From the IMG/VR virus record IMGVR_UViG_2802429244_000003: 30,649 nucleotides of DNA; one strand, 5' to 3'. The stretch comes from a virus. Lineage: Duplodnaviria > Heunggongvirae > Uroviricota > Caudoviricetes. The position numbers were made by a program, and so were the translations under genes. The notes under the pieces are model-generated. The model was not told the origin of the DNA. It saw only the letters and a program-made list of their open reading frames with translations, and searched no databases. Positions 1,163-27,653 of this stretch are shown in pieces; position 1 is the first letter of the stretch; every line of letters begins with the position of its first letter.

Positions 1163-4100
1163 TCAACTAATACTGATACCGGAAGCAGCTTTTTTGGTCA
1201 CAATCACCGTACAGTCTGTGATGTTACCTGCGCCCTGATTGCCTTTCTGGAAAATCTTAAACTCCAGAGTGACGCTACCACCACCACTCGGCATATCAAT
1301 AACCGCACTGTAACTACCGGGAATGGCTCCTTTAGTTTCTCTGGATGCGATTAATACGCCGTTTTTGCGAACTTCAAAACCATAACCCGTGTATCGCGTA
1401 CCTCCCGGGTTATTACCGCTCCCCGGATCGTCATACGCCACACCGTTAAAAATAATGGGCGGAATAATAATCTGGCGGTCAAAGTTATGATCATCGTAAA
1501 TGGTGACTGTAACCGTCCCGTTTGGTGTTTCCGTGTTACCCCACGTACCAGCCTGTTTCGGGAATGATTTGGAGACAGTTTTAACGAAGTCACCTCTGAC
1601 CTGGTTCGCCTCCAGCATGCCCTTAATCGTACAGTTTTCATTTACCGTGACGTTGTTGAGCGTCCCGGAGTTCGCGTTCACGTTACCGCTGATATCCGCA
1701 TTTTTCGCCGTCAGCCGCCCGTCCGGTGTCAGGGAAAATACCGGAGGATTGCCGCCGCTGGTAATGGTGGGAGCCGTCAGATACTTCAGGAACACTTCGT
1801 TCATGAATATCTGGTTGCCCTGCGCAACAAACATCGGCGTTTCATTCCCGTTTGCCGGGTCAATAAACGCGATACGGTTAGCGGCAACCAGGAACTGGCT
1901 CAGTTTGCCTTCCTCTGTATCCTCCATGCTGAGGCCAAGCCCCGCGACATAATGCTTACCGTCTTCGGTCTGCTCAATTTTGACGCCCCACATGGCATTC
2001 CACTTATCGTTGGCGTCCTTCCACTCTTTCGAAAACTGATCCAGTCTGCTGGCGTTATCCTCTGTCAGGTCGACTTTTTCCAGCAACTCCTTGCCGAGAT
2101 GGGATTCAGTTATCTGGCCTTTGAAAAAATCCAGGTAACCTTCCGCATCATCGCTCGCCCGACCGACAGCCTCCACGAATGCCGATTTGCCAACGGTGTT
2201 CACACTGCGAATGTAAAAATAATAATCATGGTCCGGCTTAATATTGATACTGGCAGCTATCCAGTACAGCGCCGTGCCAAGATAGCGGGCTGTGGTTTCA
2301 ACCTGCCTGATATCCGCAATCCGCTTTTCCGAGAACCAGAACTCAAACTGTACCGTCGGATCATAAACGGCAAGATGGGGCGTGGCGGTTATCTGAAAAT
2401 AGCCAGGTGTCAGCTCAATCCGAGACGGCGCTGCCGGTGCGGCAATCCGGAACGATACCGATGCCGGATCGCCCTGCTGTCCCCACGCATTTACCGCCCG
2501 GACTGTCAGCCTGTAGTTCCCCAGCGCCAGTTGCGTGAAGCGGTATGTGGTTTCCGTCGTCCGGGCCGTGCTGACCAGCCGCTCACTGCCGTCATCCGCT
2601 GCCACGGTCAGGCGAAGCATAAAGCTCACCCCCTTCACCACCTTCGGCGTGTCCCAGCGCGCCAGCACCTGATATTCCCCGCTGTCTGCGGTGACTTCGG
2701 CAGTCAGGTGCTGCACCGCTGGCGGCGTGACACCATTCACCGTGCCGCTCTGGTCGCCGTCAAAGTGCGCCCCGTTATCCACGATAGCCTCTTTTTCCGG
2801 TACATGCTGCACGGCGGTGATGGCATACGTGCCGTCATCGTTCTCACGGATACTCACGCAGCGGAACAGGCGCTGGCGCAGCGTCGGCAGCTTCAGCCCC
2901 CACACGCTGTATCCGGCAACGCCGTCAGGAACACGGCTCACTTTTACCTTCACGCCGTCGGTGACGGACTGGACCTCCACGCTGACCGGATTGCCACTTC
3001 CGTCAACCAGGCTTATCAGCGTGGTACCGGAGGATGGCAGCGTGATTTCACGGTCGAGCGTCAGCGTCCGGGTCTGGCTGTTCACAGCCAGCACGCGCCC
3101 GCCGATGCTGATCCCCGCATAGTCATCATCGCAGATTTCAATAACATCACCCGGCACATGGCGAAGCCCTTCGGCACCCACGCTGAAATCCACGGTCTGC
3201 GTTTCCAGCAGTTCTGTTTTAATCAGCCACAGCCCGGCGCGGTGTGCCTGCCCCCGACTGGTACAGCCAAAGGCATCCATCTTCGTGACGTTACGACCGT
3301 AACGGGCAATGGCCTGCGTGTCCTCCACAAGCTCTGTCGCCGTCTCCCAGCCGTTATCCGGGTCAATCCAGTTCACCTCAACGGCATTATGGCGGTCCTT
3401 CAGGGCGCTGAAGCTGTAGCGGAACGGCGCGCCATCATCCGGCATCACCACATTACTGCGGTTATAGGTCCACACCTTATCCGACGGTCGGTCCTGCACG
3501 AACGTCAGCGTCTGCCCGTTCCATACCGGCATACAGCGCATCGCCGAGCAGAAATCGCTGAGCACATCCCACGCCTTACGCTGAGTGGTCAGCCAGGCAT
3601 TACAGGTGATGCGCGGCTCCGTGCCGCCAAAGCCGTCCGGCACCGACTGGTCGCAATTCTGGCCGATGACATACAGCGCCCATTTATCCACATCTGCCGC
3701 ACCAAGACGTTTCCCCATGCCGTAGCGCGGGTGGGTCAGCATATCCCACAGACACCAGGCCATATTGTTGCTGTATGCTGGCTTAAACGTTCCGTCCCAG
3801 ATACCGCTGTATTGCCGCGTCTGCGGGTTATAGTTCGACGGCACCTGCAGAATGCGCCCGCGAAGATGATAATTACGGCTCACCTGCTGACTGCCGAACT
3901 GTTCCGAGTCCACCTGCACGCCGACCAGTGCCGTGTTCGGGTAGCACTGTTTCACATCGATGATTTCGGTGTATGACGACCAGAGCGTTTTGTTCTGCAG
4001 CTGGTCTGTGGTGCTGTCCGGTGTCATCCTGCGCATCCGGATATTAAACGGGCGCGGCGGCAGGTTATCCACCACCACCGAGGCCAGATACTGCGACGTG

Positions 4101-22055: not shown

Positions 22056-22271
22056 TTACTCTCCTCTCGCAGCCTTACGCCTGTCTTCTTTAATCTTGAA
22101 ATAAAGATTTGTCAGATACGTCAGCAGGCCAAAAACCAGGCTACCCAGCACACCGATTGCAGCCCACTGTGACGGAGTTACTTTATCGAGTAACTGCAAT
22201 GCCCAGAAACCAGCATTACCCGCCGATGTGCCATAGGCAACACCTGTTGTTAACTTATCCATTGATTTCAT
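22056..22271 (-). CDS. S: Holin, phage-21 S-type pinholin with dual-start motif
   Basis: [71 protein letters not shown] matches phage 21 S pinholin as recalled; Met1 and Met4 give the antiholin/holin dual start. Confidence 0.85.
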
Positions 22272-22490
22272 ATCCTCACCCCGATGTACACGGATGGTGC
22301 AATATGTTTGAAAATATCGGAGTCTACGGGGTAGTTTTTACAGCACACGTTGTTCTCAACGGCGCTAAAAAAACATACACATTAAAAATGTGGTTAATTA
22401 TTTTGAAAGAAAATCATATATTAATTAATAATACGAGAAATGTTTTCATATTTAGTGTACTGTATACGGCCATTTATACAGGAAAAGCCT

Positions 22491-22661
22491 ATGTCAGAAC
22501 GTAAAGACTCAAAATCACGCCGTAATTATCTCGTTAAATGTTCCTGCCCAAACTGCACCCAAGAGTCAGAACACAGTTTTTCAAGAGTACAAAAAGGTGC
22601 CCTTTTGATCTGCCCTCATTGCAACAAAGTATTCCAGACAAATCTTAAAGCTGTAGCCTGA
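22491..22661 (+). CDS. Candidate small zinc-ribbon protein (56 aa; CxxC, 17 residues, CxxC)
   Basis: MSERKDSKSRRNYLVKCSCPNCTQESEHSFSRVQKGALLICPHCNKVFQTNLKAVA; AGGA 7 nt upstream; hairpin terminator about 60 nt downstream; possible TTGAAA / TAATAA promoter elements upstream. Confidence 0.4.
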   Translation: MSERKDSKSRRNYLVKCSCPNCTQESEHSFSRVQKGALLICPHCNKVFQTNLKAVA

Positions 22662-22718: not shown

Positions 22719-22745
22719 ATAAAAAACCCGCCTGAGCGGGTTTAA
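22719..22745. terminator. Bidirectional hairpin terminator, stronger on the minus strand (T6 tail)
   Basis: AAAAAACCCGC, CTGA loop, GCGGGTTT; on the minus strand the stem is followed by TTTTTTATT; lies between cspB and the holin. Confidence 0.6.
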
Positions 22746-23024
22746 TATTGTGGTGCTTTTTGTGAGAGTCATCCACTTACGCACTTTGTTTTGCTATGCC
22801 AGCAGTTAGCTTCTGCTGTAAAACTATTCATGCAGCAAACCTGCACTTCACCACAATGGTTAGCATACTTTTCCTGATTAAGTTATTACCAAATATGCTG
22901 GCCATTGTTTCATGTATTGGACCGCCTTACTCTTTATTAAAGAGATCCAATATTCACCACTCTGTCTGTATCTCCACTCAGGCATCAGCCTTCTTCGTTA
23001 TCGTATACAGACAAACTATGAATT

Positions 23025-23240
23025 TTAATCATTAATGATGACATTTGCTGCTGCAGGACCTTTAGCACCACTCTCTACAGAGAAGGTAACCTTTTGACCT
23101 TCAAATAAGGTTCGATAATTATCATTCTGAATCGCAGAAAAATGCACAAACACATCTTTACTACCATCAACAGGAGAAATAAAGCCAAAACCTTTATCAG
23201 CGTTAAACCATTTTACTAAACCAGTCATTTTATTTGACAT
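23025..23240 (-). CDS. cspB: Cold shock protein, CspA family (CspB-like)
   Basis: [67 protein letters not shown]: cold-shock domain with the RNP1 motif KGFGFI; long 5' UTR region upstream. Confidence 0.9.
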
Positions 23241-23539
23241 TCTACATTCCTTAACTTGAGCCTTTCGGCATAAATGGTTTGTATAACAGAAACGACTTCG
23301 TACTTAATTGGAGAGACTCAAAGAAGGAATAAGTGAATAACACCTGAAATGAGAACTGCTTTAGTAAACTACTTCGTATATCGTCTGTTCTTCAAACCGA
23401 CGCAATCATTAACGCATAGTTGAACATATGAAGCAATGTTTATTTTAGACATCCAGCCATCTTCAACCCCATCAAAAAACTATAGCTTTCTTCAGGAACG
23501 TGTGTATAGTGCGCCAAGTTATCAGTATTAAGGAATTTT

Positions 23540-23752
23540 TTGTCCCGTAAAATGACAGGAATTGTCAAAACCTTTGACTACAAAAGCGGCAAAGGTCTTA
23601 TCATACCATCCGATGGCCGTATCGATGTCCAGCTGCACGTTTCTGCTCTCAATCTCCGCGATGCAGAAGAAATTACCACAGGATTACGCGTGGAATTTTG
23701 CCGAATCAATGGTCTACGTGGACCTTCAGCTGCCAATGTTTATCTTTCATGA
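23540..23752 (+). CDS. cspF: Divergent cold-shock-domain protein (CspF/CspH-like, lacking the canonical RNP motifs)
   Basis: (M)[69 protein letters not shown]; the track start is a TTG with AGGA 5 nt upstream; an in-frame ATG lies 12 nt downstream. Confidence 0.85.
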
Positions 23753-24386: not shown

Positions 24387-24523
24387 TGCCAAACAGGAGT
24401 AAACGTCATTTTATGTAATGTTGATTGAGTGGTCATAGTATCACCTCAATAACAGCTCTTCGCCCTATCATTGAAAGCATATCTGCTATAATTAAAAAGC
24501 CACTTAACATCAGGACTTCAAAC

Positions 24524-24709
24524 ATGACTTCAAATCAATCTGAAAACGAAATAGTTAATACTGTCAAAAAATATGCATCATGTGCTGACGATGCTTTGCA
24601 GGCAGGCAAAGAAAACGTTAAAGATAAATTTAGAAATTATCCACTGACTAGCGTGGTGGTCGCTCTAAGCATAGGGTTAACGCTTGGTTTTATTATTGGC
24701 AGAAAATAA
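24524..24709 (+). CDS. Small C-terminally membrane-anchored protein, DUF883-like (ElaB/YqjD/YgaM family)
   Basis: MTSNQSENEIVNTVKKYASCADDALQAGKENVKDKFRNYPLTSVVVALSIGLTLGFIIGRK; the C-terminal single transmembrane segment ending in basic residues is typical of the family; AGGA upstream. The track ORF would extend to a TTG at 24425. Confidence 0.55.
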   Translation: MTSNQSENEIVNTVKKYASCADDALQAGKENVKDKFRNYPLTSVVVALSIGLTLGFIIGRK

Positions 24710-25727: not shown

Positions 25728-25837
25728 CTTATTGATATTTTCCACCGGTATGCATATAAGGCTCATCATTGGAAAACTCTTTGCACGTTTCCTTAGAAAA
25801 TACAATCGTTATGTCGCCATCGTTCGGTGAAAATCTT

Positions 25838-26590
25838 TTATCTTGTCACTTTTCTCAGTTGTGCTTCTGCATACGCTTCTTCCTGCCAGCACTTTGTTAC
25901 CAGTTTATCAATGACGTCCGCATACCCCTTGTACCACTGATAATCTGTCAGGTCCGGTACCAACTTCTGGACATGACGTCGTGCCAGTGTGGTCGGTAAA
26001 CGACTAAACCTGTTTCCATTACAACGCCCACAAATCTTATAAACCGGTACGCCATGAAGCCGGGTTCTTTTTTCATCCAGGACAATACCTTTACCCTTAC
26101 ACCCTCTGCACGCTGTGCTGACTTCGCCCTTACCATGGCAATGCTGACATAGTTCCTTCCCCCATTCTTCCTTGATAACAGATTCCCCACTTCTGTAGTG
26201 TTTCACCACTTCGCGCAATACATTATGAAATCCCGTACCTGCACAATGTTCACAGCGAGCCTTACTTGCCGCAGACCTGGAATAATCAGCAAAGGCAAAA
26301 TTCACAAGGTAAGGGATGATCTGTAACCGGGTTTCTTCACTCAATTTGTTCAATATCGGGTTATCCAGTGCCATCGCGTAATTGAGCAGACCTTCAATCG
26401 CAAACTGAGGGTCCTGAACACCAACTTTTGCCAGGAATAAGGCAAACCCAAGCGGTGCTTTCGACTGCACCATCCCCTGCGCAGCCATCACATCCGTAAT
26501 TGCTAAACCACCTGAGTCTGTCGCCGGTGCGTCATCGCTCAATTTTGGAGGTTTTGGGGAGTAATATTTTGGTAAGGCTTCAAGGTTCAT
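25838..26590 (-). CDS. Q: Late gene antiterminator Q (zinc-binding)
   Basis: 250 aa from MNLEALPKYY...; contains CEHCAGTG...CQHCHGKG...CRGCKGKG...CGRCNG Cys motifs; GGAGA Shine-Dalgarno; located upstream of the lysis cassette as quuQ is in the Qin prophage. Confidence 0.8.
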   Translation of the reverse strand: MNLEALPKYYSPKPPKLSDDAPATDSGGLAITDVMAAQGMVQSKAPLGFALFLAKVGVQDPQFAIEGLLNYAMALDNPILNKLSEETRLQIIPYLVNFAFADYSRSAASKARCEHCAGTGFHNVLREVVKHYRSGESVIKEEWGKELCQHCHGKGEVSTACRGCKGKGIVLDEKRTRLHGVPVYKICGRCNGNRFSRLPTTLARRHVQKLVPDLTDYQWYKGYADVIDKLVTKCWQEEAYAEAQLRKVTR

Positions 26591-26603
26591 GCTCGTTCTC
26601 CAC

Positions 26604-27653
26604 TTACGCCAATACGCCAATTGCCAGCGCACGATCGATAAAACGAAATATCAGCTCCAGCTGGGAGCCATACTTCTTTTCAAATGCCACGGTATCCGCA
26701 TGCAGCTCGTCGTGATGCTTTCTGCACAAAGGCAACACAAAGAGGTCATGCGCTTTTGTACCCATTCCGCCCTGACCATGACCAATCAGGTGATGGGGAT
26801 CGTCAGCTGGCTTACCACAACACGCACACGGCTGTGTCTTCACCCAGCGCGTGTATTTCTCATTTACCCAGCGGCGACGTTTAGGTCGCTTCATGAAAGA
26901 TTCCGGAGACTCCGGATCAACGGCAATGCTGACCTCCGTCTTTTCCTGTGGTGGGTTCTGTTGCTGGTGGGCGTGAGGCGGTAGCACAATATTTTTTGTG
27001 CGCTGCTTCAGTATACTGGTGGCTGTCTGCTCTCCCGGTATGATGTCACTCTCGCGGTAAAGCGAGCGGATTTTTTCAGCACGTAACCCCAGAGAACGAC
27101 GTAATACTGCCTCCGGTAGCGCGTCCGCTACCTGATTGCAGACCGCCCACCAGGATAATTCAGCCAGCGATAATTCCCGCTCCTGCGTGCCATTCATTGC
27201 ATGGCGTATGACGTCAATCATCCATGCTGACAGGTTTTGATGAGCAAGTTGCCCGAGTGATTCGGATGTCTGGTCACGCAGCTGGTTGTCGCAGTGCCAG
27301 CACAACACCATCGCGCCGGTACCGTAACGATGTATGACGATTTCACTGTGATGATAGTCACCATGAGGCCACTGGCAGGATTTGACATGACGCAACAGCC
27401 AGTCAGACAGTGCACCAGCGCCGCCAGCAGCACGAATCACCCGCTCATCGCTGAAAAATGGCAGTAATGATTTATCCTCCGCCAGCGGCTGGCGAACTGC
27501 AGGGACGACTCCGGATGGCAGGCCGCACATGCTTTTTGGTTCCGGCTCCACCAGCACGCGAGGATTATGAAATACCCGCATGGATTCACGGCCCGGTTTT
27601 AGCACCACCAGCCCAAGTTCCGGTACCGGAACAGGTCGAAGTAATACCCGCAC
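26604..27653 (-). CDS. DUF968-domain protein (ydfU-like; Cys/His-rich C-terminus)
   Basis: 349 aa; C-terminal CACCGKPADDPHHLIGHGQGGMGTKAHDLFVLPLCRKHHDELH; immediately upstream of Q, as ydfU is in Qin. Family assignment is from memory. Confidence 0.7.
   Translation of the reverse strand: MRVLLRPVPVPELGLVVLKPGRESMRVFHNPRVLVEPEPKSMCGLPSGVVPAVRQPLAEDKSLLPFFSDERVIRAAGGAGALSDWLLRHVKSCQWPHGDYHHSEIVIHRYGTGAMVLCWHCDNQLRDQTSESLGQLAHQNLSAWMIDVIRHAMNGTQERELSLAELSWWAVCNQVADALPEAVLRRSLGLRAEKIRSLYRESDIIPGEQTATSILKQRTKNIVLPPHAHQQQNPPQEKTEVSIAVDPESPESFMKRPKRRRWVNEKYTRWVKTQPCACCGKPADDPHHLIGHGQGGMGTKAHDLFVLPLCRKHHDELHADTVAFEKKYGSQLELIFRFIDRALAIGVLA

Follow-up and report, generated by a model that had tools for sequence, protein, structure and literature searches.

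Genes and features at the locus

The window, by which we mean the whole stretch of viral DNA analyzed here (30,649 nucleotides), holds a prophage that looks complete, with terminase, tail, lysis, and Q genes all present. Between cspB and a gene for a P21 S-type holin lies a plus-strand ORF (Table 1) that starts with ATG and encodes the 56-residue product MSERKDSKSRRNYLVKCSCPNCTQESEHSFSRVQKGALLICPHCNKVFQTNLKAVA. This ORF is ynfU, catalogued in Escherichia coli K-12 as b4776, and it is a genuine gene, located 219 bp upstream of the holin start and divergent from the holin gene. An earlier sequence-only reading of this DNA had placed a 56-codon gene here, oriented against the late operon just upstream of the holin, and both points are correct. 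The minus strand encodes Q, CspB, the holin, the DUF1327 protein, the endolysin, and Rz, and ynfU therefore opposes late transcription. It shares this antisense orientation with cspF and a 94-aa ORF, which is likely another moron, as both of these oppose the late operon as well.

The hairpin that follows Q is plausibly tR', which would place pR' within positions 25731 to 25837. The DUF1327 protein encoded between the holin and endolysin genes has 183 aa, compared with 103 aa in K-12 YdfR, and thus carries about 80 extra C-terminal residues.

Table 1. Features in and around ynfU in the window, in order of position
Feature	Position	Strand	Evidence and remarks
DUF1327 protein gene, 183 aa	21500-22051	-	phrog_2091, unknown function; between holin and endolysin
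P21 S-type holin gene	22056-22271	-	Pfam PF04971, 116.7 bits; first gene of the lysis cassette
Sigma-70-like site TTGAAA-18-AATAAT	22403-22432	+	consensus scan; alternative promoter
-10-like box TACTGT	22458-22463	+	upstream alignments, 80 species loci; 33 nt before ATG
Inverted repeat CTGTATA-N8-TATACAG	22460-22481		perfect 7-bp arms; overlaps -10-like box and leader
Shine-Dalgarno AGGA	22480-22483	+	7 nt before ATG; SD-like motif at -16 to -5 in 80/80 loci
ynfU CDS, 56 aa plus stop	22491-22661	+	Pfam, NCBIfam, RefSeq annotation, conservation, dN/dS
GC-rich hairpin AAACCCGCCTGAGCGGGTTT	22724-22743		terminator scan; 63 nt after ynfU stop
cspB with cspA-type thermoregulator 5' UTR	22960-23401 (CDS 23025-23240)	-	Pfam CSD; convergent with ynfU
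cspF-type box GTGTGTATAGT	TATAGT at 23505-23510	+	35 nt before cspF start; TAGCTTT ahead; conserved, loci L001-L080
cspF-like gene, TTG start	23540-23752	+	divergent from cspB
94-aa ORF, hydrophobic C-terminal tail LTSVVVALSIGLTLGFIIGRK	24425-24709	+	phrog_11629, no Pfam match; between Q/tR' and cspF
tR'-like terminator	25730->25712	-	terminator scan; hairpin and T-run about 110 nt past Q stop
Q antiterminator gene	25838-26632	-	Pfam PF03589, 178.5 bits

The ORF is ynfU, a known and translated gene

The homology and profile searches that had been proposed as a check gave matches far above the curated cutoffs. Against Pfam PF23499 (YnfU), the product scored 107.7 bits (cutoff, 27) and covered profile positions 1 to 49 of 49, and against NCBIfam NF038384, it scored 79.8 bits (cutoff, 36). 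It also has the two CPxC knuckles 18 residues apart and the SEHSF core of the family, and its gene occupies the position between an essQ-type holin gene and cspB that is orthologous to that in K-12. The K-12 protein (YP_010051186.1) is of equal length and 96% identical to that of the window, from which it is set apart by D6N and K53N. The flanks are likewise alike, with the order essQ, ynfU, cspB, and cspF found in a Qin-type prophage in both cases, although Qin of K-12 MG1655 is cryptic, whereas the prophage of the window is seemingly complete. More broadly, among 5426 complete E. coli genomes, 1653 contain the 753-bp essQ-cspB spacer at 95-99% identity, and in these RefSeq labels the product "putative zinc-binding protein YnfU."

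Weaver et al. found ynfU in 2019 through ribosome profiling, detecting the protein by Ribo-RET and confirming it by chromosomal SPA tagging and western blotting (bioRxiv 10.1101/511675). In K-12, where the gene resides in Qin, the tagged protein was seen in both exponential and stationary phase, its level was the highest among the newly found small proteins, and its translation at 37°C was comparatively high (bioRxiv 10.1101/511675). PIRT-seq later confirmed translation (PMC12350097). The papers found to mention YnfU assign it no function or phenotype; one of them, an evolution experiment, lists an intergenic ynfU/cspB polymorphism that was present at low frequency and was not followed up. The gene is thus already known, in that it is named, shown to be translated, and covered by family models, and the new angles offered by our comparison are its csp linkage, a deeply conserved promoter-like box, and a list of residues to mutate. 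It remains a lead, being a small protein of E. coli that is well expressed yet uncharacterized.

Among 5.8 billion proteins, a word-indexed search recovered 49 relatives; in 1.84 billion representatives, a profile search yielded just 36 matches. Given how few matches both searches returned, we regard YnfU as a narrow family whose members stand alone and are 50-60 aa long. The 36 profile matches included no informative domain fusions or distant relatives; the real ones all stand alone, whereas every long match either reads through a frameshift or is a false positive, HMA repeats being an example.

We also considered a longer frame of 73 aa beginning at the ATG at 22440 and rejected it. An in-frame stop lies no more than 17 codons upstream in 39/80 loci, the upstream part has no codon-position pattern, and the Shine-Dalgarno motif precedes the 56-aa start.

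YnfU is conserved as a protein across Enterobacteriaceae

By scanning one genome per species, we collected 80 loci, all effectively from Enterobacteriaceae, which together with the window give 81 orthologues. The two zinc knuckles, C19-P-N-C22 and C41-P-H-C44, are separated by 18 residues; the sequence-only reading had recognized both CxxC pairs and had counted the spacer as 17. The full CxxC-18-CxxC arrangement is intact in 80 of the 81 orthologues, the exception being a truncated copy, so that the four cysteines are conserved as that reading required. Because a fifth, nearly invariant cysteine is present at C17, the first motif in fact reads CxCxxC, a form intact in 78/81. Between the knuckles stands the sequence SEHSF, of which S26-E27-H28-S29 is invariant and F30 is kept in 96%. 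R32, K35, G36, and L39 are invariant as well, and N12, L14, C19, P20, C22, C41, P42, and C44 are invariant or nearly so. No other surface of the protein is as well conserved as the hairpin that lies between the two knuckles. The basic N-terminal tail is conserved at R4, K5, and R11, and in all 80 orthologues the protein carries a net charge of +6 to +8 and has a pI of 9.4-10.

Length is 54-56 aa in 71 of the 81 orthologues, the median pairwise dN/dS over the core of the protein is ~0.10, and the entropies at codon positions 1, 2, and 3 are 0.59, 0.30, and 1.23. The ORF is far beyond chance and under strong purifying selection. A short ORF in an AT-rich spacer that is highly conserved within E. 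coli might be a chance open frame overlying a noncoding conserved signal. However, the codon-position pattern, the dN/dS of 0.10, the conserved length, the invariant cysteines and SEHSF segment, and the ribosome-binding motif at every locus all argue against this explanation; the coding pattern together with the published evidence of translation refutes it, and its probability is negligible.

YnfU is predicted to be a basic zinc ribbon

AlphaFold2, run on a 34-sequence alignment, predicted a small beta-hairpin fold resembling a zinc ribbon (mean pLDDT, 71.6; core, 77-84), with strands at residues 14-18, 25-29, 38-40, and 47-49; residues 30-35 form a short helix. In this model the knuckles sit on beta-hairpins and the four cysteines come together, as in a Cys4 zinc ribbon, and one Zn2+ would be held by C19, C22, C41, and C44. 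The zinc-ribbon reading proposed earlier is thus upheld by the conserved knuckles and by the ribbon-like model. Weaver et al. had also remarked that the protein has two CPXC zinc knuckles (bioRxiv 10.1101/511675).

Apart from YnfU itself, no Pfam family scored above threshold. The PhnA/YjdM N-terminal zinc ribbon (PF08274) reached 22.4 bits against a threshold of 30.8; in a sequence profile search of the PDB, the PhnA-like protein PA0128, noted by Weaver et al. (bioRxiv 10.1101/511675), came in at E = 0.31. An anti-sigma-like role, which had been suggested as one that small zinc-ribbon proteins often play, finds no footing here: the HxxxCxxC motif of the ZAS family is absent, since V15 and A37 occupy the places where His would precede C19 and C41, and anti-sigma Pfam domains gave no match at E <= 1. 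We conclude that YnfU is, as modeled, a basic and generic Cys4 zinc ribbon without a significant specific structural match.

The closest neighbors, all below significance, are nevertheless of a kind: aS21, L44e, S27e, Tim15, and HVO_2753 are all small zinc ribbons with a place on the ribosome or with partners that they bind. The top Foldseek match was archaeal aS21 (9znf/9o17; probability, 0.91; TM, ~0.45; 34% identity over 35 columns), and L44e ranked second in the PDB profile search (E = 0.038), matching in CP.C...EHS.S. Like YnfU, aS21, HVO_2753 (6ydh, from Haloferax), L44e, and S27e are basic proteins of about 50-60 aa in which two CPxC-type knuckles form a beta-hairpin ribbon. In contrast to the enterobacterial YnfU, aS21 and HVO_2753 are archaeal. 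None of the matches is significant, and a place for YnfU on the ribosome is hypothetical.

Alternatively, YnfU may modulate a larger protein rather than bind nucleic acid, as is the case for most E. coli small proteins that have been characterized, for example as a chaperone-escort zinc finger of the Hep1/Tim15 type. The core ribbon motif of Tim15/Zim17/Hep1 (PF05180) does align with that of YnfU: Tim15 was the best sequence match in the PDB (E = 0.014), sharing the motif CxxC...S.H..S..(x)KG..LI.CPHC, and it ranked third in Foldseek. Binding to larger proteins is what Weaver et al. anticipate for most small proteins (bioRxiv 10.1101/511675), and in one Kosakonia locus an HSP20 gene converges on ynfU. 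Yet all of these scores are below threshold, with the Pfam DNL-type zinc finger at 13.4 bits against 27 (E = 0.076), and the (H)LIADNL motif is missing after the second CxxC, where the segment following C44 reads NKVFQTNL and is variable in the family. Because the motif is missing and the Pfam score is below threshold, YnfU is not a DNL-type zinc finger, and its strong, conserved positive charge fits nucleic acid binding at least equally well. We consider a larger protein partner, the main rival to RNA or the ribosome, possible but doubtful.

A conserved promoter-like box and a shared hairpin flank ynfU

We aligned the 150 nt upstream of ynfU from all loci. Within the family the box reads GTGTAtgGT, beginning ~36 nt before the ATG, and the TA..GT inside it is invariant from -33. 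The box is also kept in two homologues of only ~40% protein identity that lie in nonphage contexts, as GTGTATGGT in L088 (positions 3960-4003; 33 nt before the ATG) and as TATGGTATGGT in L090 (positions 2480-2528), a conservation that is unusually deep for what would be a promoter element. It shows the signature of a sigma-70 -10 hexamer (T-12, A-11, T-7), and the -35 region is poor, yet with a conserved GAGCTAT/AAGCAAT element. Judging from these alignments, the TACTGT box is likely the core promoter and would give a leader of ~20 nt. Compared by eye with consensus sequences, the box gave no convincing match to sites for sigma-32, sigma-E, sigma-S, sigma-28, or sigma-54, nor to Fur, Zur, LexA, or Y-box sites.

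The Shine-Dalgarno motif that the sequence-only reading had judged reasonable is borne out by its presence across the family. Its possible sigma-70 promoter fares less well: the TTGAAA-18-AATAAT site exists, but promoter-like sites in this AT-rich upstream region are no more numerous than chance would give (3 found versus 4.6 expected in shuffles), and the site is specific to Escherichia, other genera being without it. The inverted repeat across the box and leader is similarly confined to Escherichia/Shigella copies and absent from other genera. As RNA it is not stabler than shuffled sequences (z = -0.46), and it could be an operator gained in the prophage lineage. RNAalifold found no conserved pairs (0) in the leader across 32 genera.

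Genomic SELEX in K-12, performed before ynfU was annotated, placed peaks for the RpoH and RpoE holoenzymes within the essQ-cspB spacer (PMC5493296). These peaks are too coarsely resolved to be attributed to ynfU; shifted by the assembly offset, they would presumably fall in or just after the gene.

Downstream, the earlier reading was right that a terminator-like hairpin follows ynfU, but the terminator scan scored this hairpin on the minus strand, where a T-run follows, as the terminator of cspB. Because the plus-strand tail, TAATATTGT, has 5 T in 9, the hairpin can serve either direction but is weaker for ynfU, and it therefore closes both convergent units, strongly for cspB and more weakly for ynfU. 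The 104-nt region downstream of ynfU folds with z = -3.5. Transcripts of cspB would run ~280 nt past the stop codon, via a weak terminator (22846->22830), to this hairpin (22743->22724). We thus picture ynfU as a unit that would comprise the -10-like box, the Shine-Dalgarno motif, the 56-codon CDS, and the hairpin it would hold in common with cspB.

In this prophage, ynfU is probably a moron

The gene is an insert between conserved modules; related phages lack it, and it is found elsewhere. A terminator hairpin follows it, and the conserved -10-like box, with a weak -35 region, would be its promoter. Only 8 of 50,697 phage records contain ynfU. Identical copies are carried by HannyBb, Tritos, 2H10, and PhiR63_1, and a 98% identical copy by PhiR42_1, all of them plaque-forming or induced phages; in the HannyBb record, the sole one that we inspected, ynfU is in the same place, adjoining the holin gene. 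Together with cspB and cspF, ynfU would appear to be a moron occupying the interval from Q/tR' to the lysis genes in a lambdoid prophage resembling Qin and phage 21. The identity of the gene and its moron status in this prophage are, in our view, nearly certain.

The bor gene of lambda encodes an outer-membrane lipoprotein and, as Juhala, Hendrix, and co-workers are reported to have found, has a promoter of its own from which it is transcribed in the direction opposite to the late genes. Morons of the bor type resemble ynfU in that they lie between modules of the late region as apparently self-contained genes, run antisense to the late operon, have a terminator hairpin behind them, and are expressed in the lysogen, as ynfU is in K-12 Qin. 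They differ from it in product and distribution, since YnfU looks like a cytoplasmic zinc ribbon rather than a lipoprotein and its family is mostly chromosomal.

One might suspect a moron in this classic slot, expressed in the lysogen and carried by temperate phages, of guarding the lysogen against other phages through superinfection exclusion or defense. YnfU matched none of the PADLOC defense-protein models, however, and in the PHROG library it gave only subthreshold matches, to families of unknown function. Most members of the family, moreover, are found outside prophages, and we give a defensive role very little credence.

Cold-shock genes, not lysis genes, are the persistent neighbors of ynfU

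We searched the neighbor proteins of the window against the 80 species loci, each fetched with ±4 kb of flanking DNA. A P21-type holin gene lies within ±4 kb of ynfU at 8/80 loci and a lysozyme gene at 10/80, whereas 56/80 loci have a cold-shock-domain gene no farther than 1.5 kb away, in at least three architectures. A cspB-like gene is convergent with ynfU within 800 bp at 37 of the 80 loci (median gap, 270 bp), a cspF-like gene follows on the same strand at 20, and a csp gene lies upstream within 800 bp at 13. Given 56 loci with a csp gene against 8 with a holin gene, we conclude that the persistent partner of ynfU is a csp gene and not the lysis cassette. With nine csp paralogues in the 4.6 Mb of K-12, a random 3-kb segment would be expected, as a rough estimate, to contain one in less than 1% of cases.

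The flank opposite the csp gene is variable and may hold short-chain dehydrogenases, LysR regulators, a 75-aa phrog_3425 protein, or YmcF-like proteins. Gene calls labeled with Pfam domains place ynfU amid ordinary chromosomal genes for metabolism or stress, as with the HSP20 gene in Kosakonia. In Klebsiella, ynfU is found between Cys/Met-metabolism genes and a CSD gene, which is followed by a PTS operon, and in Enterobacter it is found between a tautomerase gene and an HTH or T6SS PAAR gene. The two distant homologues adjoin DinI/Usp/ABM/YdhR genes and a TetR/MFS pair. YnfU is therefore a chromosomal small-protein family of Enterobacteriaceae, mostly outside prophages, and not a gene of the phage lysis module.

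These counts bear directly on the suggestion of the sequence-only reading that ynfU, through head-on transcription or as a regulator, damps expression of the holin gene or late operon in the lysogen. The geometry fits, in that Q-dependent late transcription from ~25.8 kb must cross ynfU antisense, and ynfU is actively expressed in the Qin lysogen. But the comparison lends the idea no support: the holin is adjacent in only 8 of the 80 species loci, and elsewhere the family is conserved in nonphage contexts at a dN/dS of 0.10, so that selection acts on the YnfU protein and not on its position. Further, cspF and the 94-aa ORF oppose the late operon in the same way, late transcripts in a lysogen should already be stopped short of the ynfU region by the tR'-like terminator that follows Q, plaque-forming phages carry the same arrangement, and YnfU matches no PADLOC or regulator family. 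A selected role in lysis control is thus very unlikely; interference with the holin gene is possible as a local side effect, for which nothing suggests that ynfU was selected. The comparative data instead move the functional hypothesis from phage lysis control to csp gene islands.

Taken as a whole, the reading that we favor is that ynfU is an autonomous unit encoding a small zinc-ribbon protein and forming a moron together with csp genes, to which we assign a probability of roughly 80%. Under this reading, the hairpin surface formed by SEHSF, R32, and Q34-K35-G36 and the basic N-terminal tail would bind a macromolecular partner, which would most likely be RNA or the ribosome, or else a protein acting in the context of the Csp RNA chaperones. 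We advance the RNA or ribosome mechanism tentatively, as a possibility that the charge and the ribbon relatives make worth pursuing. A stronger version, in which YnfU is a dedicated zinc-ribbon RNA- or ribosome-binding partner of the cspB/cspF-class paralogues, is co-inherited with them across Enterobacteriaceae, and is perhaps co-regulated with cspF-type genes, strikes us as speculative and rather unlikely. SEHSF, R32, Q34-K35-G36, and the basic tail make up the surface worth mutating.

The csp neighborhood offers further signals of its own. The cspB gene has a full-length match to the cspA thermoregulator (Rfam RF01766; 156 bits; gathering score, 78), and this prophage-borne cspB therefore has a cold-sensing 5' UTR. 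The boxes ahead of cspF and ynfU resemble each other, with PWM column correlations of 0.34-0.40 that are not sharply peaked against shifted controls. The likeness is suggestive of a shared promoter type or of co-regulation, and the two genes may be co-regulated via GTGTAyrGT at ~33-35 nt before the start with an AGC-containing element ahead.

A YmcF-like Cys-rich protein (PF23641) is encoded within 4 kb of ynfU at 22/80 loci and is absent from the window. The YmcF/YnfQ proteins are similar to YnfU in size, Cys4 pattern, and csp adjacency, but homology between the two is not detectable; we tried this relationship and rejected it (hhalign probability, 1.6%), and YnfU does not belong to PF23641. 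The 75-aa phrog_3425 protein (MKKVIVFFNANPGK...), which has no Pfam match, is encoded divergently upstream of ynfU at 20/80 loci. With the csp genes, the phrog_3425 and YmcF-like genes (upstream, minus strand; L008, L041-L047, L053-L080) form small-gene islands.

Four nonenterobacterial records contain enterobacterial ynfU-csp DNA: a Veillonella MAG (L002), Vagococcus (L024), Kocuria (L038), and a Bacillota MAG (L040). The contigs concerned look like contamination. In the Veillonella MAG, YnfU is identical to that of the window, and the flanking holin and cspB genes are 97-100% identical.
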